Shown here: positions 1 to 64,000 of the stretch, one piece after another | Position numbering within the stretch: position 1 is the stretch's first letter | How the letters are laid out: every line of letters starts with the position of its first letter | Assembly (NCBI GenBank): GCA_039796295.1 | Contig: JBDKJY010000034.1 | Span: 4,325 to 68,324, forward strand | DNA: 64,000 nt | Direction of reading: 5' to 3' | Origin: Verrucomicrobiota bacterium | GTDB taxonomy: Bacteria; Verrucomicrobiota; Verrucomicrobiia; Limisphaerales; SXTU01 | Position numbers and translations under genes: made by a program | Notes under the pieces: model-generated | What the model was told of the DNA's origin: nothing | The model's input: the letters and a program-made list of their open reading frames with translations, nothing else | The model's database searches: none

Positions 1-2092
1 CCGTGTAGCTCGCGCTGGCGTTGAGCGTCCAGCGGCGGAAGGGCGTTAGCGTGTGGCCTAGGCTGAAGGTGTGGGCGTCGTGATTGGCTGAGGCGACTGC
101 GCCGCCGGGCGTGAAACCGGGCAACGTGTCCGTCGCCGTCACGTAGTCGGTGGCGGCGAGCCGATAGCCGAACTGCATCTTCCACCAGTTCGCCGCCCGC
201 CACGAAAGCCGCGCGTCCACTTCGTCACCGCGACTGGCGCGTTGTCGCAGGAAGCCAGGATACGGACCGCCACCGGGCCCGAAGGCGTATTCCAAGTTCG
301 CATAGTCGGTGCGCGTCTCGCGGTGCTTGTAGCTGGCGGAGAACGTCGCCCCGACCCACGGCGACGTGTGAAATCCCGCGCGTAGTTCCCGCAGGTCCGC
401 GTCCGCGTCCGTGCGCCGTAGAAACGCATCGGCCCCGCCCGCCTGTTGCTCGAAGGTGCCGCGTCCCTCCTTCTGGAACCGTCCATCCGCGAACACCGTT
501 GTGTGCGGCAGGCCCGTGTAACGCAGCCCCAACTGCTCCGTCGTCATGTGCGTGTCGAGCTGAGAACCGAGCGTGATGGGCACGGAGAAGAAGAAGGGGA
601 TCGTCGGATTGCCAAAGCGCAGGTTCTCGTCGCCGAGACCGGTCTGGCGCGTCCACTCGCTCTGCACAGCGACGGAGAAGGAAAGGTTCGCCCACGGTCC
701 AGCCAGCGCCGACGCACTGAACAGATGCGACTCGCGGTCGAGCAGGATTTGGTTCGCAAACCACTGCTCGCCGAACGCGCCGCCGCCTGCCGCCGTCACG
801 GTGTTCATCTGGAAACCCGCGTCGCCTTCCATGCGCGAATAGAGGTAGCCGACGGAACCGAAGAGCCAGTCGCGCAACTGCCGCTCCAGCCGTAGCGCGT
901 TCTGCCCCTGCCAATGGCTCGCCTGCTCGCGCACGAGCACGAAGGACGACGGCGTGGCCGTGCCGCCGAACGCGCTGCCGGGCGACGCCTGTTCCTTGCG
1001 CGTGCTGAGGTCATAGAACTCAACCCGTGCGTTGTTTTCGAGGTGTGTGCCGCGCCAGTCGTGTTCGAGGTCGAGCTTCAGGATGTGCGTCTGCTCGTCC
1101 ACAAAGCGCAGCGACGGATAAATGTTCTTCACCAGCCCGCCCTGCGTGGAGTCGCCCCAGTGCAGCGTGGACTGCGCGCCGTCGCGGAACTGAAACTCAT
1201 AGCCCAACGTCACGCGGGGCCAGTCGGGCAGTGTAAGGCCGACATCGAAGGCCGCGCGCCCGCCGTCCATGAACAGCTCGCGGCCCAGCCGGAAACTCGG
1301 GGTGGCGAAGGGCGCGTAATAGCCGCCGGTGTCGTCGTAGTAGCGCCGCCATTGCTCGAACTCCGCGCGGACAAAACCTACATCGCGCCGGTCGAGCGAG
1401 AGCTTCACCGCATAGTCCTCGTCACGGGGCAGGGCATGGCCCGACAGCGAAAACCGCGTGTCCGTGTCGTCTTGCTGCTCGAAGGAGAAGTTCGCCGCGC
1501 CGCCGGACACGCCGGGGCGCAGGCCGGTATGCTCGCGGAACTTCGCCTCGTTGCCGGTGACGGAGACGAACCGGATAGCGGGAGCGACGGAGAATTCAAT
1601 TATAGGCTGCCGACTGAACGCGACTTCGTCCCACTTCACGCCTTGGTCAATCCACGCGCGCAGCTTGCCGACCTGCTCGGCGGTGAGCGGCCCGTGCTTG
1701 CCAGGCGGCGGCATCTGCGTCTCCGCGTCGAGTCGCGCGACGGCGTGAATCAACCGACTCTCCACGCTGCGGCCCGGCAGGATGGCGGGGCCACTCGCGC
1801 CGCCGCGCAATGCGGCGTCGCGCGTGTCGAGGCGGAGACCGCCCTTGGGCTTCACCGCGCCGTGGCAGCGCAGGCAGGAAGTTTCGAGGATGGGTTGGAT
1901 GTCGCGCGCGAAATCAATCGAGGCGGAGGAAGGCGGCGGGAGTTTGCTGGCGTCAATCGCACTGCAACTCAGCGCGGCGGCGAGCCAGCAGCCCAGCAGG
2001 AAGCGGCTGCGGACGTGGGCGTCCGCGCTCCTTTGCGCTAGCGACTGACCGCTGACCGCTGACCGCTGACCACTGTTAGCTTCCCGCTTCAT
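1..2092 (-). CDS. PSCyt1 (planctomycete-type cytochrome c) domain protein fused to a long beta-rich, porin-like region; 3' end lies outside the window
   Basis: Absent from the ORF track because it runs off the window. Hand translation of the minus strand from ATG 2092..2090 stays open to position 1: MKREANSGQRSAVSGQSLAQRSADAHVRSRFLLGCWLAAALSCSA..FARDIQPILETSCLRCHG..LRAWIDQG.., followed by >550 aa of strand-like, Gly/aromatic-rich sequence. Track ORF 914..2041(+) is its antisense shadow. Confidence 0.75.
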   Translation of the reverse strand, partial: MKREANSGQRSAVSGQSLAQRSADAHVRSRFLLGCWLAAALSCSAIDASKLPPPSSASIDFARDIQPILETSCLRCHGAVKPKGGLRLDTRDAALRGGASGPAILPGRSVESRLIHAVARLDAETQMPPPGKHGPLTAEQVGKLRAWIDQGVKWDEVAFSRQPIIEFSVAPAIRFVSVTGNEAKFREHTGLRPGVSGGAANFSFEQQDDTDTRFSLSGHALPRDEDYAVKLSLDRRDVGFVRAEFEQWRRYYDDTGGYYAPFATPSFRLGRELFMDGGRAAFDVGLTLPDWPRVTLGYEFQFRDGAQSTLHWGDSTQGGLVKNIYPSLRFVDEQTHILKLDLEHDWRGTHLENNARVEFYDLSTRKEQASPGSAFGGTATPSSFVLVREQASHWQGQNALRLERQLRDWLFGSVGYLYSRMEGDAGFQMNTVTAAGGGAFGEQWFANQILLDRESHLFSASALAGPWANLSFSVAVQSEWTRQTGLGDENLRFGNPTIPFFFSVPITLGSQLDTHMTTEQLGLRYTGLPHTTVFADGRFQKEGRGTFEQQAGGADAFLRRTDADADLRELRAGFHTSPWVGATFSASYKHRETRTDYANLEYAFGPGGGPYPGFLRQRASRGDEVDARLSWRAANWWKMQFGYRLAATDYVTATDTLPGFTPGGAVASANHDAHTFSLGHTLTPFRRWTLNASASYT
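1998..2031. repeat. 34-nt palindromic REP-like element (core GCGGACG-TGGGC-GTCCGC), identical copy at 57681..57714
   Basis: aggaagcggctgcggacgtgggcgtccgcgctcc occurs identically at both sites. Both copies lie in frame inside minus-strand CDSs. Confidence 0.85.
2045..2072. repeat. Heptanucleotide tandem array CTGACCG x4 (GGTCAGC family)
   Basis: ctgaccg ctgaccg ctgaccg ctgacca. Encodes SGQRSAVSGQ in the N-terminal extension of the 1..2092 ORF. The same unit recurs at 32765..32792. Confidence 0.9.
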
Positions 2093-2928
2093 CAGTATCG
2101 CAGCTTCGGGTCGATGTTCGACCCATGCACCGCCGTGTGGCAGCCCGCTGACCAGCAGGTGCCGCGACGGATGAACGCGGTGTGGGTGGTGTTGCCAAAG
2201 ACGATTTCGCCAGCGGTGGTCTGCACCTGCGCGTGGCACTTGATGCAGAGGTTCACGTCGCGCTGGTGAAGGAGCTTTTGCGTGAAAGAGCCGTGCGGCG
2301 TGTGGCAGGCCACGCAGCCTTCGCGCAAGGCCTCGTGGCCGAAGACGTGCGTCTTGCTCTGCTCGCGATGGCAGTTGGCGCACGTCTCGTTGAGTCGCGA
2401 GAGGGCGGGTCCGCCCTTGGGTTTGTGGATGTCGAAGCCGTGCGCGTCGTGGCACTGGCCGCAGTGGAGTTTGCCTTCAAGGACTTGGTGGTGGTGCGGC
2501 AGCCGGAACTCCGCGTGGGTCTGGACGTGGCAAGCAAAGCAGGTTTCCGGCGACTTGCGCGGGTTGACGATGAACTTGTCGCGGCCTTGTCCGCCGCACT
2601 GAACGTGTTTACTGCCCGGCCCGTGGCAGGACTCGCAGCCGGTCTGGCTGGCGAAGCGCGGGCTGTCCGAGTGGAAACGCCCGTGCGCGCTAGCGGCGAA
2701 GGTGCGGGTGTAGTTCGTGTGACAGTCGGCGCAGGCTTTGTTGCCGACGAACGTCGCGCCTTCGATGGCCGGCGGAGCGGAGACGGTTCGTTCGACGGTG
2801 GAGCAGGAGCTGAGGGACAGGCAGATGCAGGCCGCGATGAGGAGCGACGGGACGGCCAGCCAGCGGAGGAGTTGTTTGGCCATCGAAGTCACGGGCGGAG
2901 CGTGCCGTGAGGCAGTGAGGGATTTCAA
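2092..2928 (-). CDS. Multihaem c-type cytochrome (7 CxxCH motifs) with lipoprotein-like leader
   Basis: CADCH, CESCH, CFACH, CGQCH, CANCH, CVACH and CIKCH motifs. N-terminal hydrophobic leader ends in LSLSSCST. The stop shares one base with the next ATG (TGATG). Confidence 0.85.
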   Translation of the reverse strand: MKSLTASRHAPPVTSMAKQLLRWLAVPSLLIAACICLSLSSCSTVERTVSAPPAIEGATFVGNKACADCHTNYTRTFAASAHGRFHSDSPRFASQTGCESCHGPGSKHVQCGGQGRDKFIVNPRKSPETCFACHVQTHAEFRLPHHHQVLEGKLHCGQCHDAHGFDIHKPKGGPALSRLNETCANCHREQSKTHVFGHEALREGCVACHTPHGSFTQKLLHQRDVNLCIKCHAQVQTTAGEIVFGNTTHTAFIRRGTCWSAGCHTAVHGSNIDPKLRY

Positions 2929-3017
2929 CGGAAAGAAGGCGTAGCCTCAACTCGTGGCCATGTTCGTGAGAACATGGTGTTCTATTCTAGCGAGCCACGC
3001 TCTCACGAGCGTGGCCA

Positions 3018-5069: not shown

Positions 5070-5081
5070 GGGCGGCGGGCT

Positions 5082-5591: not shown

Positions 5592-5622
5592 GTCGCGAAA
5601 CTACGGGGCTGCTTCGACGGCG

Positions 5623-6205: not shown

Positions 6206-7459
6206 TCAGAGACTCGTCACCGTCTGGTCTTCCGTCTTCAACTCCCCTTCCCAGCGCGCCATGACGGCGGAGGCGAGGCAGTTGCCGACGAGGTTCACCG
6301 TGGTGCGCGCCATGTCCATCAGCTCGTCCACGCCGAGGATGATGGCGACGCCTTCCAGCGGCAGGCCAAAGCTGGCGAGCGTGCCGGACAGGATGACCAG
6401 CGACGCGCGCGGCACGGCGGCGATGCCCTTGGTGGTGAGCATGAGCGTGAGCATCATCATGAGCTGCTGGCCGAGGGTCATGTCCACGCCCGCCGCCTGC
6501 GCGACGAAGACGGACGCGATGGCGAGGTAGAGCGTGCTGCCGTCGAGGTTGAAGGAGTAGCCCGTGGGCAGCACGAAGGAGACGATGCGCTTGGGCACGC
6601 CGAACTCGGTCATGCGCTTGAGGGCGTCGGGCAGCGCGGCGTCGGAGGAGGTGGTGGAGAAGGCGATGAGCGCGGGCTCCTTCACGGCGCGGAGGAACTT
6701 GCGCAGCGGGATGCGCGCCCAGAGCGCGACCGGCACCAGCACCACGAGGCAGAACACCACGAGCGCGCCGTAGAGCGTGAGCACGAGCATCCCGAGGTTT
6801 TTCAGCACGCCCAACCCACTGTGCCCGACCGTCACCGCCATCGCCGCGCCGATGCCGAAGGGCGCGCAGAGCATCACGAGGCCGGTGAACTTGAACATGA
6901 CTTCGCTCAGCCCCTCGAAGAAGTTGAGCATCGTCTCCTTGGGCTTGCCCTGCACTTGCGTCAGCGCGAGGGCGAAGAGGATGGTGAATACGACGACCTG
7001 GAGCACATCGTTCTTGGCCGCGCTCTCGAAGAAACTCTTGGGCGCGATGTGCTCGATCATCTCCTGCGTGGTCTGCGTCTTGGCAGCGAATTCCTTGCCC
7101 TTTTCCGCAGAGGGCGGCAGCACCACGCCAACGCCGGGCTTGGTGAGGTTCACCGCCGCCAGCCCGATAAAGAGCGCGAGCGTGGTGACGACCTCGAAGT
7201 AGATGAAGGACTTGAACGCGAGGCGTCCGACGGCTTTCAGGTCATCGCTGTGCCCCGCAATGCCGATGATGAGCGTGCCGACGAGGATGGGGACGATGAT
7301 GCATTTGATGAGGTTGAGGAAGAGGTTGGAGACGACCTTTAGGTTCCGCGCGAGCATGGGGTAATCCGACTCCGGGAACGCCCAGCCGAGCAGGATGCCG
7401 AAGAGCATGGCCAAGAGAATCCAGTGCGTGAGGCTGACGCGGCGAAGGGCGGAGAGCAT
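6206..7459 (-). CDS. Dicarboxylate/amino acid:cation symporter (DAACS family)
   Basis: 417 aa, polytopic. Typical DAACS motifs (..FSTTSSDAALP.., ..VDELMDMARTTVN..). Confidence 0.9.
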   Translation of the reverse strand: MLSALRRVSLTHWILLAMLFGILLGWAFPESDYPMLARNLKVVSNLFLNLIKCIIVPILVGTLIIGIAGHSDDLKAVGRLAFKSFIYFEVVTTLALFIGLAAVNLTKPGVGVVLPPSAEKGKEFAAKTQTTQEMIEHIAPKSFFESAAKNDVLQVVVFTILFALALTQVQGKPKETMLNFFEGLSEVMFKFTGLVMLCAPFGIGAAMAVTVGHSGLGVLKNLGMLVLTLYGALVVFCLVVLVPVALWARIPLRKFLRAVKEPALIAFSTTSSDAALPDALKRMTEFGVPKRIVSFVLPTGYSFNLDGSTLYLAIASVFVAQAAGVDMTLGQQLMMMLTLMLTTKGIAAVPRASLVILSGTLASFGLPLEGVAIILGVDELMDMARTTVNLVGNCLASAVMARWEGELKTEDQTVTSL

Positions 7460-7525
7460 GGCAGGAGATTAAGGGTGGCGGGGCGGTGGTGTCGAGCGGG
7501 GCGGCCGAGGGAGGGGGAAGTAAGT

Positions 7526-7592
7526 AGTGTTCAGTGTTCAGACCGGCGCTCCACAGCTCGAACGGAACACTGGATACTGAACCCTGAACACT
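7526..7592. repeat. Inverted pair of heptamer arrays (AGTGTTC family) flanking a ~25-nt spacer
   Basis: Left arm is agtgttc agtgttc ag. The spacer is accggcgctccacagctcgaacggaa. Right arm cactggatactgaaccctgaacact is the reverse complement of agtgttc agggttc agtatcc agtg. Lies in a divergent intergenic region. Confidence 0.8.
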
Positions 7593-7651
7593 TTCCCCGC
7601 CCCGCCCGGATTTTTCCTCGCCAACCCGCGCCCGCGCTGGATAGTCCGCGC

Positions 7652-8560: not shown

Positions 8561-8834
<274 letters not shown>

Positions 8835-8856
8835 TCGGGTGCAGGATAGCACGGTT

Positions 8857-13109: not shown

Positions 13110-13430
13110 ATGTCTGTTTCACATGAGAACCCTCCGCCTGCCGCTGAAACGCCCACTCCCGCGCCCGCCCCGCCCCCCGCTGCCGCGCTCGTCGCCGAGG
13201 GCTTGGACCCCGCCGAACTCCTCGCCCTTCGCGCCGAACTCGAAACGGAGCGCAAGGCCCGCGCCGCTGCCGAGTCAGGCCGCAAGTCCGCCGAAACCAA
13301 AGCCGCCGAAGCGGAACGGCTCGCCCAAGAGTTGATTGCGGCGACGAAGGCCAAGCCGGATGAAGCCCCCATCGTGACGCGGCGGCGCGGGCCGCTGGGC
13401 GTGCTGTCGGCGTTTCGGCAGGTGAGTTGA
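13110..13430 (+). CDS. Hypothetical Pro/Ala-rich coiled-coil protein (first late gene)
   Basis: 106 aa: ..LLALRAELETERKARAAAESGRKSAETKAAEAERLAQELIAA.. Confidence 0.5.
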   Translation: MSVSHENPPPAAETPTPAPAPPPAAALVAEGLDPAELLALRAELETERKARAAAESGRKSAETKAAEAERLAQELIAATKAKPDEAPIVTRRRGPLGVLSAFRQVS

Positions 13431-13451
13431 GAGTTGGTGAGTTGAGAGTTG
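13422..13451. repeat. Tandem 15-nt (2 x ~7) repeat GTGAGTTGAGAGTTG x2
   Basis: gtgagttgagagttg gtgagttgagagttg, spanning the stop codon of 13110..13430. Confidence 0.85.
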
Positions 13452-13479
13452 CGAGGCACCCTTAGACCCCCATCCCCTT

Positions 13480-22878: not shown

Positions 22879-23259
22879 TTTCAAAGCCTTCTCCAGTTGC
22901 CGGGCCTTCTCCTGCATCACCGCCTCAAAGCGCTCCTCTAGCACTTGATTGATGATGGCCGACACGTTCAGGCCAATGCACTGCGCTAATTCGATGCGCG
23001 CGAGGTTCGGTCGCGCAATTGGTGAACGCGCACTTGCTGACGGTGGAGAAGTCAAAAGCCGGGAGTCAGAAGTCAGAAGGTGCGAAGACCTGAACCACCG
23101 AGGCACAGGCGCACAGAGGCAGTGCTTTAAACTTTCAGCTTTCAACTCCTCTGCGCTCTCTGTGCCTCGGTGGTTAAAAGCCCATGCCTGATTGGACCCT
23201 GCAACCCGACTGCACCCCGCCGTGTATTAGCCGGGCAGTCGGCGGACAACCCCCGCCTC
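22879..23259. mobile_element. Decayed relic of a second, related element (tandem to the intact one)
   Basis: A truncated RHH homologue (..IELAQCIGLNVSAIINQVLEERFEAVMQEKARQLEKALKMVRGAGFEPATP) reads into attR. 23021..23072 matches 14169..14259 with an internal deletion. 23184.. (MPDWTLQPDC) matches the ATPase start at 14288 (MPDWSLSPHC). 23222..23259 matches 15861..15900. Confidence 0.75.
23093..23174. repeat. REP-like long imperfect hairpin inserted in the relic
   Basis: aaccaccgaggcacaggcgcacagagg .. AT-rich loop .. cctctgcgctctctgtgcctcggtggtt. A related ccacagaggcac/tgttcatcgtg palindrome lies at about 30633..30690. Confidence 0.7.
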
Positions 23260-24511: not shown

Positions 24512-24532
24512 GTTCTGAGTTCTGAGTTGAAG
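24512..24532. repeat. Heptamer array GTTCTGA x2 (+GTTGAAG), 8 nt upstream of a TTG start
   Basis: gttctga gttctga gttgaag. Confidence 0.85.
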
Positions 24533-26102: not shown

Positions 26103-27143
26103 TTAGTGTGAAGCCGGTTCCTCACCACGTATTTCCGCCGCGAGCTGTTGGCCGAGCTGCTCCGGCTCGGCTGATTTCCGCCGTGCCTCGGCATACTTCG
26201 CCGAGCCGGTGAGGAAGGAGACCACGCGCATCCGCAGTTGGTGCCCGAGCACTTCCGCATAGGCCGCAATCGGGCTGGCGCAGCCGCCGCCCATCGCGCG
26301 GAGGAAGGCGCGCTCGGCGCGGACGCAGAGGTGCGTGTTGCCGTGGTTGAGGCGTGCGAGGATGGGCGTGACGCGGTCGTTGTCGCGGCGGACTTCGATG
26401 CCCACGGCGGCCTGGCCGACGGCGGGGAGCATCACTTCGGGTTCGAGGCGCACGGCGAGCAAGCCCGGCGGAACGCCTTCCCCGACGAGGGAACCGGTGG
26501 GTTGGATGCGGAACTTGAGTCGTTCAAGCCCTGCGGCGGCGAGCAGGATGGCGTCGAAGTCTGAGCGGTCGGCGAGTTTGAGCAAACGGGTCGGCACGTT
26601 GCCGCGCAGCTCGACGACTCCCACATCGGGCCGCGCCGCGAGGAGGAGCGCGCGGCGGCGCGTGCTGCTGGTGGCGACGATGGTGCCGGCGGGCAGGGCC
26701 GCGAGCTTGAGGTGCGGCGCGAAGCCCCGGCGCACTTGCTGGCCCGGCGTCCACTCGGCCTCGACTTGTTTCGAGGCCTCGGCGCGGACGACCTTCGCGT
26801 CGCGGTAGATGAGCACATCGCGCACATCGGCGCGTTTGCTGACCGCACCGAGCACGAGGCCGGCTGGCAGTTCCGTGGGCAAATCTTTCAAGCTATGCAC
26901 CGCGAGGTCGGCCTCGCCGTTGAGCAGGGCGACTTCGAGTTCCTTGGTGAACAGTCCCTTCGGCAGGGACGGATCGGGGTTCGACAGCGAGGCGGTCTGA
27001 AGCTTGTCGCCGGTGGTCTTGATGATGTTCAGCTCGAAGGCGAGCCGCGGAAACGCTGCGCGACACTGGGCGAGGACGGCGTTGGCTTGGGCGAGCGCGA
27101 GCGCGCTGCCCCGGGTGGCGATGACAATGGGTTTCGGGTTCAA
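26103..27143 (-). CDS. hemC: Hydroxymethylbilane synthase (porphobilinogen deaminase)
   Basis: IATRGSALALAQA.., IKTTGDK. Full-length family match by eye. TTG start. Confidence 0.93.
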   Translation of the reverse strand: MNPKPIVIATRGSALALAQANAVLAQCRAAFPRLAFELNIIKTTGDKLQTASLSNPDPSLPKGLFTKELEVALLNGEADLAVHSLKDLPTELPAGLVLGAVSKRADVRDVLIYRDAKVVRAEASKQVEAEWTPGQQVRRGFAPHLKLAALPAGTIVATSSTRRRALLLAARPDVGVVELRGNVPTRLLKLADRSDFDAILLAAAGLERLKFRIQPTGSLVGEGVPPGLLAVRLEPEVMLPAVGQAAVGIEVRRDNDRVTPILARLNHGNTHLCVRAERAFLRAMGGGCASPIAAYAEVLGHQLRMRVVSFLTGSAKYAEARRKSAEPEQLGQQLAAEIRGEEPASH

Positions 27144-27144
27144 G

Positions 27145-27165
27145 GTTTTGAGTTTTGAGTTTCTC
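27145..27165. repeat. Heptamer array GTTTTGA x2 (+GTTTCTC) abutting the hemC TTG start
   Basis: gttttga gttttga gtttctc. Begins 2 nt from the start codon. Confidence 0.85.
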
Positions 27166-27188
27166 CGCTCACGCGCGCGGTCACGTGG

Positions 27189-28250
27189 TCAGCTTCCGTG
27201 GCCGAGGGCGAACTTGGAGCCGGGGGCGCTGGGCGCTCCCGGTGGCGCGGCCAGCAACGCCTGCGCCTTCGCGCGGATGATGGCCTCGCAGGCGGCCAGT
27301 TCCTCGCGACGCAGTTTCAGGTAGTCGTCGGCGATGGTTTGGAGGTCGTCCACGTTGTAGAGGTAAACGTCGTCGAGGTAGTTGACCTCTGGCTCGATGT
27401 CGCGCGGCACGGCGATGTCGATGAGCAGTAGCGGGCGCGCGTGGCGGAGTTTGTGCAGCGGGGCAAGCAGCGCGCGCGTCAGGACGTAGTGCGGCGCGCT
27501 GGTGCTGCTGATGATGATGTCAATCTGTGCAAACTCGGTGTGCCAGTCATCGAAGTGAACGGCCCGCCCGCCCAGCTCCGTCGCCAGCGACACGGCCCGG
27601 TCGTGCGAGCGGTTGGAAACGATGACGCTCGTCGCGCCACGACTCAGCAGGGCGCGCGCGGTCTTCTCGCTCGTGTCGCCCGCGCCGATGACCATCACGG
27701 TGCGCCCGACCAACGTGTCGAAAATCTTCTCCGCCAGCTCCACCGCGACCGAGGCGACGGAGACGCTGCCGCGCTGGATGTTCGTCTCGGTGCGGATCTT
27801 CTTGGCGACGTTGAAGGCGCCCTGGAACGCCTTGTTCAAGCGCCGGCCGGTGTGCTGGTGTTTCAGCGCGCGGTCGTAGGCCTGCTTGAGCTGGCCGAGA
27901 ATTTCCGTCTCGCCCAGCACCATCGAGTCGAGGCCGGCGGCGACTTTGAACAGGTGCTCGACGCTGTGCGGCTCGGTGAGTTCGTAGAGTTCGCTGCCGA
28001 GCGGCTCGGTGTAGTTGTGATGCGAGAGGAGGAAGCGACGCAGCTCGGTCAAGGCCGCGCGCGGCTCCGCGCTGGTGGCGGCGTAAATCTCGACGCGGTT
28101 GCAGGTGGAGAGAATGACCGCCTCCTCGATGACGCCGGACTCGCGGAGCTTGCGCATCGCCTCGGCAGTCGTGGCCTCGGCAAAGGCGAACCGCTCCCGC
28201 ACCGTGACGGGCGCGGTGCGGTGGCTGAGGCCGAGAGCGACGATGGGCAT
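27189..28250 (-). CDS. hemA: Glutamyl-tRNA reductase
   Basis: GLSHRTAPVTVRERFAF, LSTCNRVEIY, Rossmann GAGDTS. Confidence 0.93.
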   Translation of the reverse strand: MPIVALGLSHRTAPVTVRERFAFAEATTAEAMRKLRESGVIEEAVILSTCNRVEIYAATSAEPRAALTELRRFLLSHHNYTEPLGSELYELTEPHSVEHLFKVAAGLDSMVLGETEILGQLKQAYDRALKHQHTGRRLNKAFQGAFNVAKKIRTETNIQRGSVSVASVAVELAEKIFDTLVGRTVMVIGAGDTSEKTARALLSRGATSVIVSNRSHDRAVSLATELGGRAVHFDDWHTEFAQIDIIISSTSAPHYVLTRALLAPLHKLRHARPLLLIDIAVPRDIEPEVNYLDDVYLYNVDDLQTIADDYLKLRREELAACEAIIRAKAQALLAAPPGAPSAPGSKFALGHGS

Positions 28251-28263
28251 GGAACGTTAGGAG

Positions 28264-28291
28264 ATGGGGAATGGGGAATAGGGAATGGGGC
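28264..28291. repeat. Heptamer array ATGGGGA x4 (one variant ATAGGGA), 14-41 nt upstream of the hemA ATG
   Basis: atgggga atgggga ataggga atggggc. Confidence 0.9.
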
Positions 28292-28319
28292 CGAGAGCAA
28301 CCGGACGCCGAGGCCATCG

Positions 28320-28356
<37 letters not shown>

Positions 28357-28360
28357 TTGG

Positions 28361-29179
28361 TCACGGGTTGTGGATGCCCGAGAGCAGGTTGAAGCCCCAG
28401 AAGGTCAGGAGCACGAAGGCGAAGCTGCCGACGGCACCCCAAGCGAACTTCCGTCCGCCGGGTGAGAACCGCCAGTGGGCGAACAGCAGGCCGGCATACA
28501 GGAGCAGCACGAAGCCGGACCAGAGCACCTTCGGGTCGGCCAGCGGGTTCGTGGCTGCCGGGGAGTGCTTCATGAGCATTGGCGAGAGTGAGAGCCCCGC
28601 CGCCAGCAGCACCACGCCGCAGAGTAGGAAGCGCCCGATGACCAGTTCCAAGCCTTGGATGGATGGGAGCGTGGAGACGAGGGCGCGGAGCTTGTGGAAC
28701 TTCAGGTCGTGCTCCTGCGTGAGATACATCAGGCCCGCCGCCGATCCGAGGCCGAACGCGCCGTAAGCCAGCAGGACGAGCGCGACGTGCAGGCTCACCA
28801 GCCCACCGGAGAAGTCCGGGCGCGGGCCTTTCACGTCCAAGGCCGGCATCAGCGCGAAGACACCCATCGCGAAGAGCACCGGCGAGACGAACGCGCCGAG
28901 GAACCGCAGGCGGGGCAGGGCACCGATGGCGAGGAAGGCCGCCACGATGGTCCACGCCGTGAAGGTCGTGGCTTCGTAGAGGTTGGTGACCGGGCAGCGC
29001 TCCAAGCTGAACCCACGCTTCACCATCGCGACCGTGTGCAGGACCGCTGCACAGAGCAGGAGGAAGTATTGCCAACGGGAGTCATGCCGGAAGCCGCGTC
29101 GCCAGATGAAAAAGGACCACGTCGCGCTCGCCCCGTAGAGCAGCACGGCCAGTCCGAAGAATCCGCGGTCAGTCAGCAT
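28361..29179 (-). CDS. Cytochrome c assembly family membrane protein (CcsA-like, hem-operon associated)
   Basis: 272 aa, about 8 TM. C-terminal W-rich region ..LLFAHWRFSPGGRKFAWGAVGSFAFVLLTFWG.. Confidence 0.75.
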   Translation of the reverse strand: MLTDRGFFGLAVLLYGASATWSFFIWRRGFRHDSRWQYFLLLCAAVLHTVAMVKRGFSLERCPVTNLYEATTFTAWTIVAAFLAIGALPRLRFLGAFVSPVLFAMGVFALMPALDVKGPRPDFSGGLVSLHVALVLLAYGAFGLGSAAGLMYLTQEHDLKFHKLRALVSTLPSIQGLELVIGRFLLCGVVLLAAGLSLSPMLMKHSPAATNPLADPKVLWSGFVLLLYAGLLFAHWRFSPGGRKFAWGAVGSFAFVLLTFWGFNLLSGIHNP

Positions 29180-41655: not shown

Positions 41656-41734
41656 GACGACGTGAGGAGTCTCACTTCAACTCGGAACGCGGAACTCAGA
41701 ACGCAGAACCCAGTTAGGGCTTCCTCACGTCGTC
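41656..41734. repeat. 13-bp-stem hairpin whose loop carries a GAACNCN heptamer array x4
   Basis: gacgacgtgagga .. gaacgcg gaactca gaacgca gaaccca .. tcctcacgtcgtc. Confidence 0.8.
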
Positions 41735-41750
41735 TCCGACGGACGCTCCC

Positions 41751-54921: not shown

Positions 54922-55470
54922 GACAACGCGGCGCAAGATAGCGGCCCGGCCCACCGCGTCCACGCCGAACCGGTCCGCAGGCAAAGACGTAACGTGTCTC
55001 CGTCCAACCCAGAACCCAGAACCTAGTCTGAGACTCCCCATGTCCGCGCATACCACCGAGGCTCGGCTTGCGAGGGGGAACCCCACGGCCCCAAGGCCCG
55101 TGATTTCAGACGCTAAACCCGGCCTCATCGGTCGGATTGGAAAACGAGGCCAACCACAGTTCAGCCCGACCAGGCTCAAGGACAGGAGCGCGCTGCGGGG
55201 CCGCGGCAGAAAAGTAGCCCCGGCGTGAGTCGTGGGTGGCGTGCGCGCACCGCAGTGAGCCCCCCGCGTGGCGACAGAAAGCAGGGCCGCACCGGATTGG
55301 CGCGTCCTTCTGCCGCTGCTCCGTTGCTCCGACCAAGGCTTCGCGCGGTTGGTGTTTTTACACGGGCTGTAAAGCCGGGTGCGATTGAGCGGAGAAGCGT
55401 TGCAATCGTTGACTCGCGCCCCGCTCAACTGCCCCGCGCATATGAAGCTTGCTGCGGCTAGACAGCCGCG

Positions 55471-59451: not shown

Positions 59452-59453
59452 TC

Positions 59454-59894: not shown

Positions 59895-60052
59895 GGTGTT
59901 GAGTGATTGCGTGAACTGGGCATTGACGACGGTGGGAGCGTGCCTTGGCGGAGGCGGGCTGGTCCAACGCTTTCCGAAGGCTTCACCGCCCGGGCCCGGG
60001 CCCGGTTCATTTTGCTCCCGGTGAATCGCTCTTGCGCCTACACTCCAACCGC

Positions 60053-60928: not shown

Positions 60929-60946
60929 GTCCACATCCAACCAGCC

Positions 60947-61348
60947 ATGAGCAAACCCCAGCGGATTCCCACGGACGGCGGGCCGGGCTTTGGCCACAAC
61001 CCGTTCGACGCCCTCTCCAGCGCAGGTCTCCCGGCGGCTCCCGAAGTGCCGCCCGCATCCTGCCCACCGCAGAGCGCTGGTCCGACAAAGGCCGTGAAGA
61101 AGAACCGGGGGCGCGTGGACATCCTTCGCGTGAAAGCGGGGCGCGGCGGTAAGACGGTGACGGTGGTGCGCGGCTTTGTCGGCATCGGGCTGCTGGAGAA
61201 GGAGCAGCTGGCCAAGGCGATGCAGCGCGCGTGCGGCACGGGCGGGACCGTGAAGGACGGGCAGATTGAAATTCAAGGCGACCAGCGTGAAGCGGTCGCG
61301 CGCATCCTGACGGAAGCGAACTTTCGCCCGGTGCTCGCCGGCGGCTGA
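60947..61348 (+). CDS. SUI1/YciH-family translation initiation factor
   Basis: ..GRGGKTVTVVRGF..LAKAMQRACGTGGTVKDGQIEIQGDQ.. Confidence 0.85.
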   Translation: MSKPQRIPTDGGPGFGHNPFDALSSAGLPAAPEVPPASCPPQSAGPTKAVKKNRGRVDILRVKAGRGGKTVTVVRGFVGIGLLEKEQLAKAMQRACGTGGTVKDGQIEIQGDQREAVARILTEANFRPVLAGG

Positions 61349-61368
61349 ACGCGGATGGTGGTCGCCGG

Positions 61369-63225
61369 TTATTGGGGAGTCGCCATTTTCCGCAAGCGCT
61401 CGGCCTCCGCCTCGTGCTGGCGGGCTTCGGCGGGCTTCCCTTGCTTGGTGAGCACTTCCGCCAACTGCGCATGCGCGTCGGCGAGTTGGGGGTTGAGTTG
61501 CAGGGCGCGGGTGAAGCTTTCCACGGCGCGGATCAGGTCGCCTTTGCCGGCGAGCGTGAGGCCGTAATTCAAGTGCGTGTCGGCGCTGTCGGGCTTGAGG
61601 CCGAGGGCCGCGTCGAACTGCGCGAAGGCGGCTTCAAACTTCCCCTGTCGTGCGAGAGCGATCCCGTAGTTGTTACGCGCGGCTAGGTGGCGGGGAGCCA
61701 CGGCTACAGCTTTGGCGTAAGCGGCCTCGGCCTCGGCCCAGCGGCCTTCGCGGGCCAGGACGTTCCCGAAGTTGAAAGGCAGTTGCACGAAGGTGGTGTC
61801 GGGGTTGATGGCCAGCGCTTCGCGGTAGTTGGCTTCGGCCTTGGGGTCGTTGCCCGCGTCGGCGTGGGCGTTGCCGAGTTTGAGCAGGGCGACAGACCGC
61901 AGGTGGCCGCCGGGCGGCATGCGTTGAAGCAGTTCAGTGAAGAACACGAAGTCGTTTTCCCAGATGCGGGATTGGCGGTGGCTGGCGATGACGCAGAGCG
62001 CGGCCAAGATGCCGGCCACCGCCAGTGCGGGCCGTCGCCACGGACGGTCGCGCCCGTGCCAGAGCAGCGCAGCCGCAGCCACCGCGAGCAGCACGCCGTT
62101 CACGATGGAATAGCGGTCGTGCGGATAGTGCGGGCGCTCCGTGAGGCCGAGCATCGGCACGAGCAGCCCGAGATGCGCGAGCCACAGCGCGAGCGCCGCC
62201 GGCCAATGCCGCCAGCGCATCAGCAGGAGTGCGGTTACGCCCAGCACGGCGAGGGCGCTGGCGGTGAACGCGGGGGCGAAGGGGCGGTTGCCCAGCAGCG
62301 TGGTGTAGAAGGGGCCGAGGTCCAGCGGCAGAAGGGATTTCCAGACGTAGTAAGCCCACAGGTAGAACGCCTGCATCGCGCGTTCCACCAGGGTGAACTC
62401 CCCGAGGTTCGTCGGCTTGGACCAATCGCCGGTGACGAAGAAGCGGCCATAGACCGTGCCGGCCACGAGGACGACGGACAGCAGGAGGAAGGGAACTTTC
62501 TCCAGCCAAACCTTCCGAGCGGCAGCATCCACAAGGCTCGCGGAATCGCCGCGCTGGAACCGCCGCAGCGGGTAGAAATCTAAGGCCACCAGCGCCGCGA
62601 CGTAGCCGAGCACGATGGGATACGACAGCACCGCCAGCGCGAACGCGACGACGGCGAGCCAGTAGTCCCGGCGGCGGACGGAGGGCTCCGCCTCCGACGC
62701 ATGCGAACGCAGGTAGAGCAGCGTTGCCACCAGCGCGAAGCCCAGCGCGAGGTGATACGGCAAGCCCGTCACCCATGCGACCGGCTCGACGCGCAGCGGA
62801 TGCACAGCCCAGAGCAGCGTGCCGAGGGCGGCGCAGGCATCCAGCCAAGTCGCGCTCCCCATTCCGCATTCCGCATTCCGCATTCCGCATTTCAAGAGCC
62901 GTCGCAGCAGGAAGAAGAGCAGCACTGTGTTCGCGCCGTGCAGCAGGACGTTCGCGAGGTGGTAGCCAAACGGGTTCAGCCCGAAGGCTTCATGCACCAG
63001 CGCCCACGCCAGCCAAGAGAGCGGCTTGTAGCGGATGGCTTGCTCGAAGTCGGTGAACATCCAGCGCAGGTTCGCGGCGGTGAGCCCCTGCACCTTCTCG
63101 TTTTCGAAGACGTTGATGTCGTCGTCCCAGCGGAGAAAACCCGACTCCAGCGTGCGGAAGAAGACAGCGAAGACCACTGCGACGAGCACGAGGACAACGG
63201 CCGTGGTGCGGTGGTGCGGGCGCAT
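61369..63225 (-). CDS. Polytopic membrane protein with C-terminal TPR repeats (TMTC/PMT-like glycosyltransferase architecture)
   Basis: N-terminal ..WDDDINVFEN.., about 10 TM, at least 5 TPR. Confidence 0.75.
   Translation of the reverse strand: MRPHHRTTAVVLVLVAVVFAVFFRTLESGFLRWDDDINVFENEKVQGLTAANLRWMFTDFEQAIRYKPLSWLAWALVHEAFGLNPFGYHLANVLLHGANTVLLFFLLRRLLKCGMRNAECGMGSATWLDACAALGTLLWAVHPLRVEPVAWVTGLPYHLALGFALVATLLYLRSHASEAEPSVRRRDYWLAVVAFALAVLSYPIVLGYVAALVALDFYPLRRFQRGDSASLVDAAARKVWLEKVPFLLLSVVLVAGTVYGRFFVTGDWSKPTNLGEFTLVERAMQAFYLWAYYVWKSLLPLDLGPFYTTLLGNRPFAPAFTASALAVLGVTALLLMRWRHWPAALALWLAHLGLLVPMLGLTERPHYPHDRYSIVNGVLLAVAAAALLWHGRDRPWRRPALAVAGILAALCVIASHRQSRIWENDFVFFTELLQRMPPGGHLRSVALLKLGNAHADAGNDPKAEANYREALAINPDTTFVQLPFNFGNVLAREGRWAEAEAAYAKAVAVAPRHLAARNNYGIALARQGKFEAAFAQFDAALGLKPDSADTHLNYGLTLAGKGDLIRAVESFTRALQLNPQLADAHAQLAEVLTKQGKPAEARQHEAEAERLRKMATPQ
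62860..62887. repeat. In-frame heptamer array CATTCCG x4 within the TMTC-like CDS
   Basis: Encodes KCGMRNAECGMGS in a loop between TM helices. Confidence 0.9.
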
Positions 63226-63228
63226 GGC

Positions 63229-64000
63229 TCACTCCCACTCCCACACGTCCGCGTGGGTGAATTGCCCCGTGTTCAGCAGAAACTTCACGCCGAACGCCGC
63301 TTCGTTCACTGAGCCGAGCGCGACGCGGCCGCGCTCAATCGTCAGCGTCGGCCAGCCAGCGGGGCTCGGGTGGTAAAGGTCGTAGTGCGTGCTCAGGACT
63401 TGCTGCTGCACCTCGCGCGGGAACTGCGATAGCCCCGCGTTGTAGTGGTGGCCGTTGCGCTCGACGCTCTTGATGCCCAGCGCGGCGCACACGGCGAGGT
63501 CTTGCAGCAGTGCGACCGGGCCGACATTGCACAGGTCTTCGCCGCTCATCAGGAACGGTCGCGCGGGCGACTGCGTCTGCCGGTGCGCGAGCAGGCAGCG
63601 GTTCGCGATGCCTTTGATGACGCCCTTGCAGTTCTTGTGGCTGGTGCCGTCGTAGCCCAGCGCTAGCGCGGTGGGCACGCTCTCCAGTTCGCCGTCCGAC
63701 TCATCAATGATGAAGGGCGGGCGTTCCGGCCAGTTGGCCAACTCGGCAGCGGCGTCCGGCTGCAAGGCGACGCTGCGATGCAGCGGCTGCTCGACGAACA
63801 GGAGCTTCGTGAGGAACGGCTTCAGCGACTCGTCCGCGCGCAGGGTTTCCCAGAACTGTCGGAACTCGGCGAAGGACTTGAATTGCTCGTTGCCATCCAG
63901 CGTGTAGGCGAAATCCTCGCCACACTCCGCCTGCAAGACGCGCGCGATTTGCCGCAGCCGCTCCGTGTCGTGCGCCGTGTCGCCGTTCACCTTGAGCTTG
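63229..64000 (-). CDS. Enolase-superfamily (mandelate racemase/muconate-lactonising-like) enzyme, C-terminal part; 5' end outside the window
   Basis: ..TLDGNEQF.., ..FIIDESD.. The frame stays open upstream of the GTG at 63990, to the window edge. Confidence 0.6.
   Translation of the reverse strand, partial: KLKVNGDTAHDTERLRQIARVLQAECGEDFAYTLDGNEQFKSFAEFRQFWETLRADESLKPFLTKLLFVEQPLHRSVALQPDAAAELANWPERPPFIIDESDGELESVPTALALGYDGTSHKNCKGVIKGIANRCLLAHRQTQSPARPFLMSGEDLCNVGPVALLQDLAVCAALGIKSVERNGHHYNAGLSQFPREVQQQVLSTHYDLYHPSPAGWPTLTIERGRVALGSVNEAAFGVKFLLNTGQFTHADVWEWE

Follow-up and report, generated by a model that had tools for sequence, protein, structure and literature searches.

Heptanucleotide tandem-repeat modules in a Verrucomicrobiota genome and their association with PF05635 genes

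What are the seven-base tandem arrays that recur along a 64,000-nt stretch (the window) of a Verrucomicrobiota genome (assembly GCA_039796295.1, contig JBDKJY010000034.1, positions 4,325 to 68,324)? The initial annotation described at least 13 arrays, likened them to cyanobacterial short tandemly repeated repetitive (STRR) sequences, and took their density, unit reuse and frame preservation to suggest an active, templated process or a binding-site function rather than random slippage. The 7-base repeats are confirmed here as real and genome-wide, in the form of discrete modules of ~31 bases. Our leading explanation, to which we give an even chance, is that these modules are a cis element of PF05635 cassettes, with gene-less copies arising and turning over at permissive sites.

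Arrays of the window and the genome-wide census

The arrays of the window are as follows, with gene calls and start codons taken from a crude codon-usage caller.

2045-2075, minus strand: solo module of CTGACCG x4.4 (sense GGTCAGC), 31 nt, five CTG cores (TRF); codons ~6-16 of a PSCyt1-domain gene if ATG 2092 is the start, otherwise 5' leader
7505-7612, strand unassigned: hairpin element (TRF, by eye, RNA folding) in the order G-run, AGTGTTC arm (7526-7541), 26-nt loop, GAACACT-type arm (7568-7590), C-run; the minus-strand gene at 6206-7459 lies 67 nt downstream
13421-13455 (TRF 13424-13455), plus strand: GAGTTGA-type array, with periods 7, 8 and 15 all called; 3' end of a small ORF in a provirus-like region
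23047-23079, strand unassigned: weak, degenerate AGAAGTC array (69% matches; TRF), intergenic
24512-24528, minus strand: short GTTCTGA x2.4 array (TRF), upstream of a TTG, the predicted start of a MacB/FtsX-type permease gene
27131-27162 (TRF 27145-27162), minus strand: five-core module, sense AAAC-TCA-AAAC-TCA-AAAC-CTT-GAAC-CCG-AAAC, spanning the hemA-hemC spacer, the hemC TTG start and the first four hemC codons
28264-28290, minus strand: ATGGGGA x3.9 (sense CCCCATT), upstream of the hemA ATG
28320-28356, minus strand: CGGCAAT x5.3 (sense ATTGCCG), beginning right past the stop of a ccsA-like gene
32764-32789, plus strand: in-frame TCAGCGG x3.7, peptide SGQRSAVS, in a PSCyt1-PSCyt2 linker (site 1)
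32951-32979, plus strand: in-frame CGGCAAT x4.1, peptide NGNRQSAIGN, inside PSCyt2 (site 2)
34556-34672, plus strand: in-frame degenerate hairpin pair with outer G-run and C-run, in PSD1 (site 3); AGTAATT-type arm 34566-34590, AATCACT-type arm 34637-34660; fold z -2.9
41679-41713 (TRF 41685-41713), plus strand: five-core AAC module, AACTCGG AACGCGG AACTCAG AACGCAG AACCCAG, in the loop of a separate palindromic element (~41657-41737), upstream of ATG 41751
55006-55023, minus strand: short AACCCAG x2.6 (TRF), near the start of a PQQ/BamB-like beta-propeller gene (start codon uncertain)
62856-62891, minus strand: in-frame, five AATG cores (sense AATGCGG x4 followed by AATGGGG); in a TPR protein at ~aa 111-123, ahead of the TPR repeats

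Most positions in the first list were called by TRF as period 7; those at 7568 and 34566/34637, degenerate complementary arms recognized by eye and by folding, were not, and the array at 55006-55023 was an addition by TRF. The reported reuse of units at unlinked loci stood for CGGCAAT (28320 and 32951) and for GGTCAGC on the sense strand (2045 and 32765). Six arrays lie within coding sequences as described (2045, if ATG 2092 is the start, 32764, 32951, 34566, 34637 and 62856), and four lie close to start codons, subject to the crude start calls (27145 at 2 nt, 24512 at 8 nt, 28264 at 13 nt and 41679 at 38 nt). The element at 7505-7612 folds at -56.7 kcal/mol (z -5.8 on the minus strand, -4.2 on the plus strand), and its outer flanks fit the family termini GGGGAA(GTAAG)/(CTTAC)TTCCCC. 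The arrays at 28264 and 28320 form a module/29-nt spacer/module pair with no hairpin fold (z -1.3).

Across the whole genome, a 6.2-Mb MAG in 97 contigs, exact arrays of at least three copies number 198 for period 7, against 49, 57 and 6 for periods 5, 6 and 8; a Markov-3 simulated genome gave 33, 1, 0 and 0 for periods 5, 6, 7 and 8. At a TRF score of at least 50, there are 268 arrays of period 7, 7 of period 6 and 12 of period 8. TRF called 523 period-7 arrays in total, in 104 unit families, the top six of which account for 49%; unit sharing extends far past the window (AACACTG, 64 arrays; ACCGCTG, 51; AATCGGC, 40; AACTCTC, 39; AATGCGG, 38). Both results go against the pattern that would have contradicted the initial annotation, namely no excess of period 7 and no sharing outside the window. 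The density of the window itself is unexceptional for this genome, with seven arrays at a TRF score of at least 40 versus a mean of 5.4 per 64 kb.

Module anatomy, placement and turnover

The arrays are not open-ended microsatellites. Their length has a mode of 31-33 nt (236 of 523) and a median of 31 nt with or without a G-run in the unit, and each module consists of five cores of 3-5 nt at 7-nt spacing, with start and end phases fixed per family: 62 of 64 AACACTG arrays start in phases 2-4, 18 of 23 AAAAGGC arrays start in one phase, and all 17 AATCACT arrays end in one phase. In the AACACTG family, the outer termini are conserved and the loop side is unique. Neighbouring arrays less than 150 nt apart form 73 pairs versus 6.6 by chance (median gap 29 nt). 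An inverted partner within 130 nt, sitting 10-75 nt away, accompanies 141 of 523 arrays (~27%) versus none in random-DNA controls, and 43 of 50 inverted pairs lead with the G-rich arm.

Such a length rule, close to common k-mer sizes in a 97-contig MAG, could in principle come from assembly or binning, with short-read assemblers collapsing or creating repeats and the ~32-nt ceiling reflecting k-mer size. This is very improbable, and is effectively refuted by the recurrence of modules of this length and build in over 25 genomes of the order, each assembled independently, and at 80 loci from at least 12 phyla, complete genomes included (median arm 30 nt), by the variant units of most arrays, which would not collapse, and by reading frames that stay open across arrays in 198 genes; the same four-unit preference is also reported from finished genomes (Rehm et al.).

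About 43% of the arrays lie in coding sequences, 28% of these at four homologous linker positions of a single paralogue family (PSCyt/PSD1). Both flanks score best in the frame of the gene for 198 of 222 in-gene arrays. This frame preservation had been taken as a sign of mechanism; it is most simply a selection filter, since the sense-strand unit is free of stops in 205 of 227 in-gene arrays, and no mechanism is needed.

Orthologous sites reveal rapid change. At the three sites of the PSCyt/PSD1 gene of the window, sister species show units of another family, paired hairpin arms or no array at all, and distant homologues have plain linkers. The arrays at sites 1 and 2 fill the place of a native linker of nearly equal length (~9 aa in PSCyt2 for site 2), and the hairpin pair of site 3 is an insertion of ~30 aa in the PSD1 domain. 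The ccsA-hemA junction varies among sister species in the same way, with units of another family, paired hairpin arms or no array.

Some of these changes resemble the products of plain polymerase slippage, in which a chance proto-repeat at any place could give rise to an array and neither a function nor a trans-acting factor would be involved; Mrazek, Guo and Shah (2007), as relayed in PMC4679880 and PMC4692102, hypothesized that heptamers are the repeats most prone to slippage and most easily missed by mismatch repair. The array at the hemC start runs without a break into native coding sequence, and its cores form a series of 1, 2 and 4-5 across sister species, suggesting that some arrays grew from native sequence. 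At site 1, an AAATCCG array blends seamlessly into native AAT CCC codons, and single-base steps (AAATCCG, AAATCGG, CAATCGG) are homogenized array-wide in related species; the G002 orthologue is frameshifted exactly at its site-3 array. However, slippage predicts a monotonic fall in length and random phase rather than a sharp mode and fixed phase, and it does not account for half of all arrays coming from six units, for inverted partners with fixed G-first polarity, or for four genomes of other families with only 0-0.5 arrays per 100 kb. A slip of one unit within a gene is, moreover, a frameshift, despite the abundance of in-gene arrays. We thus consider slippage unlikely as the explanation, and the earlier view that more than random slippage is involved gains support from the family-specific phase and ~31-nt length, from the near-absence of arrays in these four genomes, which lack PF05635, and from the PF05635 bracketing described below.

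A role as host regulatory elements (translation-initiation leaders, RNase III or mRNA-processing sites, attenuators or terminators, G-quadruplex switches) is somewhat less probable again. Functions of this sort were suggested earlier for repeats of TAACTGA (PMC4679880) and of GGGAATC (PMC4692102), and Rehm et al. report transcription of most such Xanthomonas repeats. Of the arrays between co-directional genes, 54% lie no more than 40 nt from the downstream start (median distance 27.5 nt to the start versus 59 nt to the upstream stop), and hairpin pairs are far more stable than shuffled sequences, as at 7505-7612. Against this, species with 85-93% identical HemA have unrelated units or no array at the orthologous junction, which is only 7-12 nt long in more distant relatives, so no conserved regulatory requirement is visible; the same modules also occur in frame within protein linkers, and no Rfam family overlaps any array. 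G-quadruplexes cannot explain the length rule, because only 51 of 523 arrays contain a G3 or C3 run and the preference for four to five units is the same without one.

Inverted modules around PF05635 genes

PF05635 is the "23S rRNA intervening-sequence protein" family, an Avd-like four-helix bundle. The window contains no PF05635 gene, but all four in the genome are bracketed by inverted arrays of window-type modules, with arm units from the families ranked 2, 3 and 4 by abundance and from one minor family. The arms of the cassette between livK and livH belong to the unit family of the window array at 13421-13455. Across the order, ~27 of 33 PF05635 loci are bracketed, and in at least 12 phyla 47 of 80 have inverted arrays on both sides (41 of period 7, six of period 8), against a distal-flank background of 0.15 arrays per 360 bp. 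In this cross-phylum set, 46 of 48 lead with the G-rich arm. Inverted pairs form near-perfect stems of 26-37 bp, with PF05635 arms matching at 34/34, 35/36 and 35/37 positions, irregular units included. At livK-livH, the arms differ between species yet match each other, so the two have co-varied; arm family, and even period (7 or 8), tracks the protein subfamily.

Genomes with PF05635 have 0, 3.3, 3.3, 6.0, 8.4, 9.2 and 10.0 arrays per 100 kb, and four genomes of other families without it (three of GC 0.61-0.70, one of 0.42) have 0, 0.5, 0 and 0.5. Over 12 genomes of the order, PF05635 and period-7 density are correlated (Spearman rho 0.61, p = 0.036, no phylogenetic correction). G001, from the same genus and 82% complete, has no PF05635 match yet 2.5 arrays per 100 kb, and G024 has nine matches and no period-7 array in 97 kb. 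The commonest family, AACACTG, has no PF05635 cassette in this genome, its sole cassette containing an orphan 126-aa ORF.

Among solved structures, the nearest is that of Xanthomonas campestris XCC0516, with five chains in entry 2GSC. Avd itself forms a pentameric barrel whose five protomers all touch an RNA stem-loop (bioRxiv 10.1101/2023.10.23.563531), and the DGR Avd model NF033474 matches the PF05635 protein at E 3.5e-6, under its curated cut-off. This homology raises the possibility of active templated copying, in which an RNA or DNA template would supply arrays that take the place of native sequence at target sites without altering its length, through DGR-like retrohoming with PF05635 as an Avd-like cofactor or through a dedicated transposase. 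The defined module ends, the near-equal-length replacements at sites 1 and 2, and, at site 1 of this genome alone, the replacement of an AAATCSG-type array by the abundant GGTCAGC family are consistent with such copying. However, no reverse transcriptase adjoins any PF05635 gene, and the assembly has only one, a maturase of the group-II-intron type on a 3.7-kb contig; the positions that vary within units show no adenine specificity; and neither of the two Y1-transposase (RAYT-like) genes has heptamer arrays nearby, both being accompanied by different palindromes or repeats of their own. No conserved element body is being copied, since the loops and spacers are all unique. Both routes taken together are improbable, and so is the templated process originally suggested; some arrays appear to have grown from native sequence.

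If the modules are instead a cis element of PF05635 cassettes, those flanking the gene may work as stems, whether in RNA or in single-stranded DNA, and the five cores could form a five-site docking platform for a pentameric PF05635 protein. The gene-less copies of the window would be by-products, arising at permissive sites (operon junctions, 5' leaders and protein linkers) where short native matches seed slippage or template switching. They would then be homogenized in concert and kept near five cores, and most would be near-neutral for adjacent genes. With only four PF05635 genes for ~100 unit families, one-to-one specificity between protein and array is impossible, and stem function cannot account for most arrays, as ~73% have no inverted partner. 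Causality may also be reversed, with PF05635 genes landing in, or persisting within, pre-existing hairpins. The bracketing in many phyla provides a testable lead on the bacterial preference for 7-base repeats.

Comparison with known heptamer repeats

The initial annotation was aware of no description from PVC bacteria, and a literature search found no paper describing such arrays in Verrucomicrobiota. They are not a new kind of element, as the class is well documented in Xanthomonas, Nostoc, Beggiatoaceae, Bacteroidetes and others (PMC4692102, PMC4679880). The term "STRR-like" is apt for tandem heptamers of few unit families dispersed genome-wide, and two arrays bear the cyanobacterial STRR2 unit, TTGGTCA being a rotation of the complement of AATGACC. 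The arrays belong with the cyanobacterial STRRs and the heptamer repeats of Xanthomonas and Nostoc as one kind of element, and share the four-unit preference reported for finished genomes (Rehm et al.).

A genome-wide population of heptamer modules

The genome scanned (6.22 Mb, 97 contigs, 65% GC) is placed in Verrucomicrobiota by its nearest database relatives. The initial annotation had named an excess of period 7 over neighbouring periods as its decisive test, and such an excess is found in the genome as a whole, as shown in the table.

Exact tandem arrays of at least three copies, in the genome and in a Markov-3 simulated genome
Period 5: 49 in the genome, 33 in the simulated genome
Period 6: 57 in the genome, 1 in the simulated genome
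Period 7: 198 in the genome, 0 in the simulated genome
Period 8: 6 in the genome, 0 in the simulated genome

With TRF, at a score of at least 50, 268 arrays of period 7 were detected, versus 7 of period 6 and 12 of period 8. Lowering the score to at least 40 gave 523 period-7 arrays in 104 unit families (strands and rotations merged). The reuse of units at unlinked loci, first noticed in the window, extends genome-wide: six families (AACACTG, 64 arrays; ACCGCTG, 51; AATCGGC, 40; AACTCTC, 39; AATGCGG, 38; AAAAGGC, 23) hold 255 of the 523 arrays. Within the window, CGGCAAT is indeed common to 28320 and 32951, and, at 2045 and 32765 alike, the sense strand carries GGTCAGC. With 7 arrays at this score, against an average of 5.4 per 64 kb in the genome, the window is typical of a phenomenon that runs through the whole genome. 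Almost all the array positions listed in the initial annotation correspond to a period-7 TRF call (2045, 7526, 13424, 23047, 24512, 27145, 28264, 28320, 32764, 32951, 41685 and 62856); those at 7568 and 34566/34637 received no call and, on inspection of the sequence, are degenerate arms complementary to neighbouring arms. Genes were called with a crude codon-usage caller built for this analysis, the start codons of which are especially uncertain; on these calls, 248 arrays are intergenic and 227 lie in the interior of coding sequences (CDSs). The non-coding portion of the genome (about 20%) is thus enriched in arrays, with 47% of the total, and 43% are found within genes, in frame.

The arrays take the form of discrete modules with about five cores, specific to each family. 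Their lengths peak at 31–33 nt (236 of 523; 4.4–4.7 units), with a median of 31 and without the fall-off that slippage would predict, and the preference for about four units is also found in sister genomes and in the arms of PF05635 cassettes from other phyla. Arrays of one family start and end at a fixed position within the unit.

Phase of arrays within the unit, by family
AACACTG: 62 of 64 start in phases 2–4, and 53 of 64 end in phases 5–6
AAAAGGC: 18 of 23 have one common start phase
AACTCAG: 12 of 15 have one common start phase
AATCACT: 17 of 17 have one common end phase

A module consists of five short cores and four linkers, as in ACT-GAAC-ACT-GAAC-ACT-GAAC-ACT-GAAC-ACT (31 nt), and further examples are provided by repeated CAATC-GG (33 nt) and repeated AATG-CGG (32 nt). 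A GGG or CCC run is present in the unit of 51 of the 523 arrays (in the window, only that at 28264), and the median length is 31 both with and without a G3/C3 run. As the length rule is unchanged in the 90% of arrays devoid of G-runs, the formation of G-quadruplexes, which takes four or more phased tracts of at least three Gs, is not the general reason for the four-unit preference, and this explanation was rejected. Separate tandem arrays with periods of 21 and 42 and up to 16 copies were also observed (C1:238614-238952, C2:112402-112566, C1:80430-80626 and C2:227499-227672, C denoting a contig of this genome), together with 291 TRF clusters with periods of 14, 21 or 42 and no period-7 call; some of their units contain words of the heptamer families (AATCGGC, for instance).

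Arrays are frequently paired. Neighbours no more than 150 nt apart form 73 pairs (6.6 expected by chance), with a median gap of 29 nt, and, in a reverse-complement search, 141 of the 523 arrays had an inverted partner no more than 130 nt away (random DNA, 0), corresponding to 40% of intergenic and 16% of in-CDS arrays. Partners with the same unit in direct orientation were found for only 4 arrays. Of 50 gene-less inverted pairs, 43 begin with the G-rich arm. A MITE with a conserved body was rejected, the loops and spacers of the hairpin pairs being unique; short outer termini, GGGGAA(GTAAG) and (CTTAC)TTCCCC, are conserved in the AACACTG family.

Features of the window
7505-7612: paired arrays, folding at -56.7 kcal/mol (z -5.8)
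8561-8632: tRNA gene, the only match in an Rfam search of the window, in which no array was assigned to an RNA family
26103-29179, minus strand: haem biosynthesis operon with a ccsA-like gene, hemA (GluTR) and hemC
28264 and 28320: pair of arrays with no hairpin (fold z -1.3)
32316-35234: gene with the Pfam domains PSCyt1, PSCyt2 and PSD1
34556-34672: pair of arrays within a CDS (fold z -2.9)
41657-41737: copy of a second hairpin repeat family
55006: further array called by TRF, overlooked by the initial annotation

The second hairpin family (GTAGGAGACGACGTGAGGAGTCTC ... GAGACTCCTCACGTCGTCTCCTAC) has a stem of 14–21 bp and variable loops of 30–54 nt. Besides the window copy, it was found at C2:131829-131910, C21:4100, C32:16084 and C49:16177, and its 14-nt core accounts for 20 half-sites in the genome. 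Two copies, including that of the window, have a five-core heptamer module inside the loop.

Modules inside genes and at orthologous sites

Within genes, only modules that are in frame and lack stop codons persist, and most of them lie in linkers. Of the 222 interior arrays that could be tested, 198 have 180-nt flanks that both score best in the frame of the host gene, and these arrays are, therefore, truly embedded in frame. As 7 and 3 share no factor, three heptamer units in succession pass through every reading frame; in 205 of the 227 in-CDS arrays, the sense-strand unit has no stop codon in any frame, and the opposite strand does carry a stop in 91 of these 205. Three families have a pronounced in-CDS strand bias (AACTCTC, 21:1; ACCGCTG, 2:25; AATCGGC, 28:1). 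For AACTCTC and ACCGCTG, this bias is due to the stop codons present in one orientation, and strand bias was discarded as a general indicator of a mechanism coupled to transcription. AATCGGC has a stop codon on neither strand, so its bias has no such explanation; it is likely to result from the concentration of AATCGGC-type arrays at sites 1 and 2 of the PSCyt/PSD1 paralogues. This paralogue family (PSCyt1/PSCyt2/PSD1, DUF1549/DUF1553) has 82 genes, makes up 4.4% of proteome length and hosts 63 of the 227 in-CDS arrays, at four homologous positions, three of which are occupied in the window gene 32316-35234.

Array positions in the PSCyt/PSD1 paralogues (residues of the window protein)
Site 1, aa ~128–159: 19 arrays, mixed families
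Site 2, aa ~203–239: 22 arrays, mostly sense-strand CAATCGG
Unnumbered position, aa ~303–327: 6 arrays, mixed
Site 3, aa ~725–776: 13 arrays, mostly AGTGTTC/GAACACT hairpin pairs

One array per host gene is usual; C36:27963-31991 (1343 aa) and C14:73929-77339 (1137 aa) each carry about 7–8. For annotation, the consequence is that about 200 proteins of this genome have 7-residue-periodic inserts derived from repeat DNA rather than native sequence.

Gene-less modules turn over faster than species diverge, as judged by comparisons between species. The orthologues of the window gene 32316-35234 in sister species of the genus have 78–88% amino-acid identity. At site 1, all the variants are frame-preserving: this genome has GGTCAGC; AAATCCG, CAATCGG and a full AGTGTTC/GAACACT hairpin pair are each found in two species; and AAATCGG, an unrelated palindrome with a 21-bp stem and a plain linker are found in one species each. 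Site 3 is occupied across the sister species by hairpin pairs of at least four unit families, again with the frame kept, the in-frame TGA expected from the GAACACT arm being mutated to TGG. Other families of the order, array-poor genomes included, have ordinary linkers of near-equal length at sites 1 and 2 (IKNSKATVR-NPID and NKDPQAYAK-LV, for example), and their homologues have no insert at site 3; the arrays are, thus, secondary. Time and again, the same permissive positions have gained arrays or had them exchanged for others. A copy of the second hairpin family lies in frame at site 1 of the orthologue from one related genome (G012, locus L006). In another (G002, C108:1670-4530, locus L014), the frame of the orthologue is split exactly at the site-3 array region, the cause being a genuine frameshift mediated by the repeats or a fault in the assembly. 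The orthologues in two others (G005, contig C96, and G015, contig C30) have a tblastn gap of ~520–540 nt at aa ~408–416 with an open frame (1195–1213 aa), which points to an in-frame insertion.

The haem biosynthesis operon of the window has heptamer modules at every junction of its ccsA-like, hemA and hemC genes. The ccsA-hemA spacer is 7–12 nt long in distant relatives and ~45 nt long, without arrays, in one sister species; in the remaining sister species it is ~100 nt long and contains arm pairs from five unit families, including where HemA identity is as high as 93%. The module at the hemA-hemC junction covers the hemC start codon, which appears to be a TTG inside the module, and the first four codons. 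The sister species have 1, 2 or 4–5 cores at this junction, a direct indication that some arrays at least grow out of native sequence. A regulatory function for the host would fit the position of the arrays and their stability, but their turnover and the existence of in-frame copies speak against it, and we consider it distinctly unlikely.

PF05635 genes between inverted modules

The same modules form stems around PF05635 genes across bacteria. PF05635 (23S rRNA intervening-sequence protein, an Avd-like four-helix bundle) is not, to our knowledge, a known nuclease or transposase. The genome studied here has four such genes (on C12, C13, C23 and C62), all bracketed by arrays within ~30–90 nt; none is on the contig of the window, the arrays of which are, therefore, gene-less copies. 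Window arrays fall into the ACCGCTG, AATCGGC and AACTCTC-type families, as do the cassette arms (abundance ranks 2, 3 and 4), which also include a minor AGCATCC unit. Each cassette has a single gene of ~125 aa, and the cassettes sit at mRNA operon junctions (livK-livH; between MFP and RND pump genes). A fifth cassette (C6:80584-81154) has arms of the rank-1 family, AGTGTTC/GAACACT, around an insert of ~510 nt with an orphan 126-aa ORF matching nothing in Pfam or NCBIfam; PF05635 is, thus, not the sole cargo found between heptamer arms. By eye, this insert looks lower in GC.

PF05635 genes are present in 35 of 41 genomes of the order, with arrays on both sides in ~27 of the 33 loci examined. 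The arms are near-perfect inverted repeats of 26–37 bp (34/34, 35/36 and 35/37; best shuffle, 14), in which irregular units are matched too, and at the livK-livH locus they vary between species yet remain complementary. The protein subfamily is tracked by arm family and by period, one subfamily having period-8 arms. Beyond the order, a scan of species-representative genomes yielded 80 loci from at least 12 phyla, and 47 of these are flanked by inverted arrays on each side (period 7 at 41 loci and period 8 at 6; up to 2 mismatches per unit allowed, with a chance match of ~9% where both sides have arrays). Arrays are both-sided but not scored as inverted at 7 of the other loci, one-sided at 15 and absent at 11; distal flanks give a background of 0.15 arrays per 360 bp. 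Of 48 cross-phylum cassettes, 46 begin with the G-rich arm, and median arm length is 30 nt. An assembly artefact was rejected, its probability being next to nil with an identical architecture in dozens of independent assemblies.

Within the order, arrays tend to be found in genomes that have PF05635 genes, as indicated by samples of about 100–200 kb per genome from 12 genomes (Spearman rho 0.61, p = 0.036, uncorrected for phylogeny).

Period-7 arrays per 100 kb in genomes of the order
Four genomes without PF05635, other families: 0, 0.5, 0, 0.5
One genome without PF05635, same genus, 82% complete: 2.5
Seven genomes with 4–14 PF05635 genes: 0, 3.3, 3.3, 6.0, 8.4, 9.2, 10.0

Plain slippage accounts for local growth but leaves the phase and length of the arrays, the small number of units and the absence from related genomes unexplained, making it an unlikely explanation. 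A templated copying system is highly improbable. The only reverse transcriptase (RT) found in a search of the assembly is an RT/maturase of the group-II-intron type (C94:373-1008; 457-aa open frame on a 3.7-kb contig), with none near any PF05635 gene, and copying by a diversity-generating retroelement (DGR) or another form of retro-copying is unsupported on this account; variation between units is not adenine-specific, unlike that between the template and variable repeats of a DGR. The PF05635 protein matches TIGR02436 and, weakly, the Avd of DGRs. Among solved structures, the closest is XCC0516 (entry 2GSC, with five chains) from Xanthomonas campestris, the organism of the GGGAATC repeats. 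Avd itself is a pentameric barrel in which equivalent residues of all five protomers contact an RNA stem-loop (bioRxiv 10.1101/2023.10.23.563531).

The chances seem about even for a composite explanation in which the modules are the cis element of PF05635 cassettes, and gene-less copies are born where short matches in native sequence seed slippage or template switching, and are then homogenised. The five-core length would reflect the binding of a pentamer or a requirement for a stem with roughly three turns of helix. The G-first polarity may, speculatively, allow the C-rich arm to be paired once transcribed, thereby avoiding Rho loading. A broader reading, which we regard as possible but rather doubtful, sees heptamer arrays, and some octamer arrays, as platforms on which pentameric PF05635/Avd-like barrels dock at five sites, each protomer on its own phased core; cassettes and gene-less modules would together constitute a pan-bacterial, largely selfish element system. 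If true, it would explain the excess of heptanucleotide repeats long observed in prokaryotes, the cyanobacterial repeats and the preference for four to five units, and the fixed G-first polarity would keep the C-rich arm paired, sparing the host operon Rho-dependent polarity.

Heptanucleotide repeats have been recognised since 1990 and, since 2007, as the commonest longer simple-repeat class in many prokaryotes, and their origin, seven-base period and preference for about four units have hitherto been unexplained. Any explanation is now constrained by a length rule that stands without G-quadruplex potential, by modules with fixed ends and five phased cores, by the in-frame colonisation of protein linkers and a replacement faster than species divergence, and by the co-occurrence of modules with, and their formation of stems around, a small Avd-like gene family with a solved pentameric relative. 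This co-occurrence renders the question directly testable.

Comparison with known repeat systems

The short tandemly repeated repetitive (STRR) heptamers of cyanobacteria were reportedly described by Mazel and coworkers in 1990. STRRs are described as mainly intergenic, and the units of STRR1–3 are CCCCAAT, TTGGTCA and CAACAGT. Like the arrays studied here, they are tandem heptamers from few families, dispersed through the genome. Only TTGGTCA (STRR2; canonical AATGACC) is present among our 198 exact arrays, in 2 of them, and the dominant units are different, so these arrays are not cyanobacterial STRR1–3 sensu stricto. The host phylum also differs, and the proportion within genes departs from published descriptions.

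ORF-bearing intervening sequences of 23S rRNA (Coxiella, Leptospira) have a PF05635/S23p ORF between long stem-forming inverted repeats. Our cassettes resemble them in having a gene of this family between inverted repeats, inserted into a transcribed host unit, but lie at mRNA operon junctions rather than in rRNA and have arms consisting of tandem heptamers. Phase-variation loci (neuO, the HMW1A promoter) have long, hypermutable heptanucleotide arrays in the promoters or 5' coding regions of surface or virulence genes, with frame-switching. The arrays here are short and of fixed length, their hosts include housekeeping operons, such as hemA/hemC, and one frameshifted orthologue (G002) was observed. 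The REP/REPIN-RAYT systems also have short hairpin-forming repeats dispersed between genes and a small gene flanked by the same repeats, with gene-less doublets far outnumbering gene-bearing copies; REPIN spacers are conserved, in contrast to the unique loops of the heptamer hairpins. The genome has two PF01797 Y1-transposase (RAYT/IS200-like) genes (C37:65405-65635 and C47:35380-35682), flanked not by period-7 arrays but by other palindromes or repeats, and REPIN-RAYT identity was rejected for this reason. The C37 gene has its own GTGCCGAGCRATGYTCGGCGCTCCGA palindromes and forms with them a REP-like system distinct from the heptamer modules.

The arrays belong to a known class of heptamer repeats (STRRs; Mrazek, 2007; Rehm, 2015; MacGregor, 2015), of which we found no published description in this phylum. 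A preference for four units, inverted pairs, conserved gene context and sequence variation were already reported by Rehm et al. (2015; PMC4692102), who do not mention PF05635, and our literature search retrieved no paper linking PF05635 to heptamer arrays. Also absent from the literature found were a length rule holding without G-runs, a fixed phase for each family, a large in-frame fraction, linker hot spots in one paralogue family, and PF05635 bracketing with co-occurrence at genome level.

The GGGAATC and GGGGA(C/T)T repeats of Xanthomonas and Nostoc (PMC4692102) are, like those studied here, dispersed tandem heptamers with about four units preferred, enriched between co-directional genes and near ORF ends, and usually sharing their gene context between sister species, with widely varying length and sequence. 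Convergent (inverted) pairs are also frequent, with 70–75 per Xanthomonas genome. The differences lie in the many unit families found here, versus one dominant family there, in the large fraction of arrays inside genes, and in the G-quadruplex rationale, which fails for our arrays. The TAACTGA repeats of marine Beggiatoaceae, cyanobacteria and Bacteroidetes (MacGregor, 2015; PMC4679880) are similar in occurring in 2–6 copies directly upstream of start codons, in having stop codons in one orientation and being translatable in the other, and in the shorter repeat-free spacers of relatives; their core, ACTGA, resembles the ACTGAAC family. They differ in having one dominant unit and almost solely direct repeats. 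A role in translational regulation has been proposed for them (PMC4679880); the turnover between sister species observed here argues against a conserved regulatory role. Finally, the bias towards heptanucleotides among long simple sequence repeats (Mrazek, Guo and Shah, 2007, as reported in PMC4679880 and PMC4692102) is shared by this genome. The explanation attributed to that study in these two papers is polymerase slippage, which would not, alone, predict the fixed phase, the fixed length and the absence from relatives without PF05635 that characterise the modules described here.
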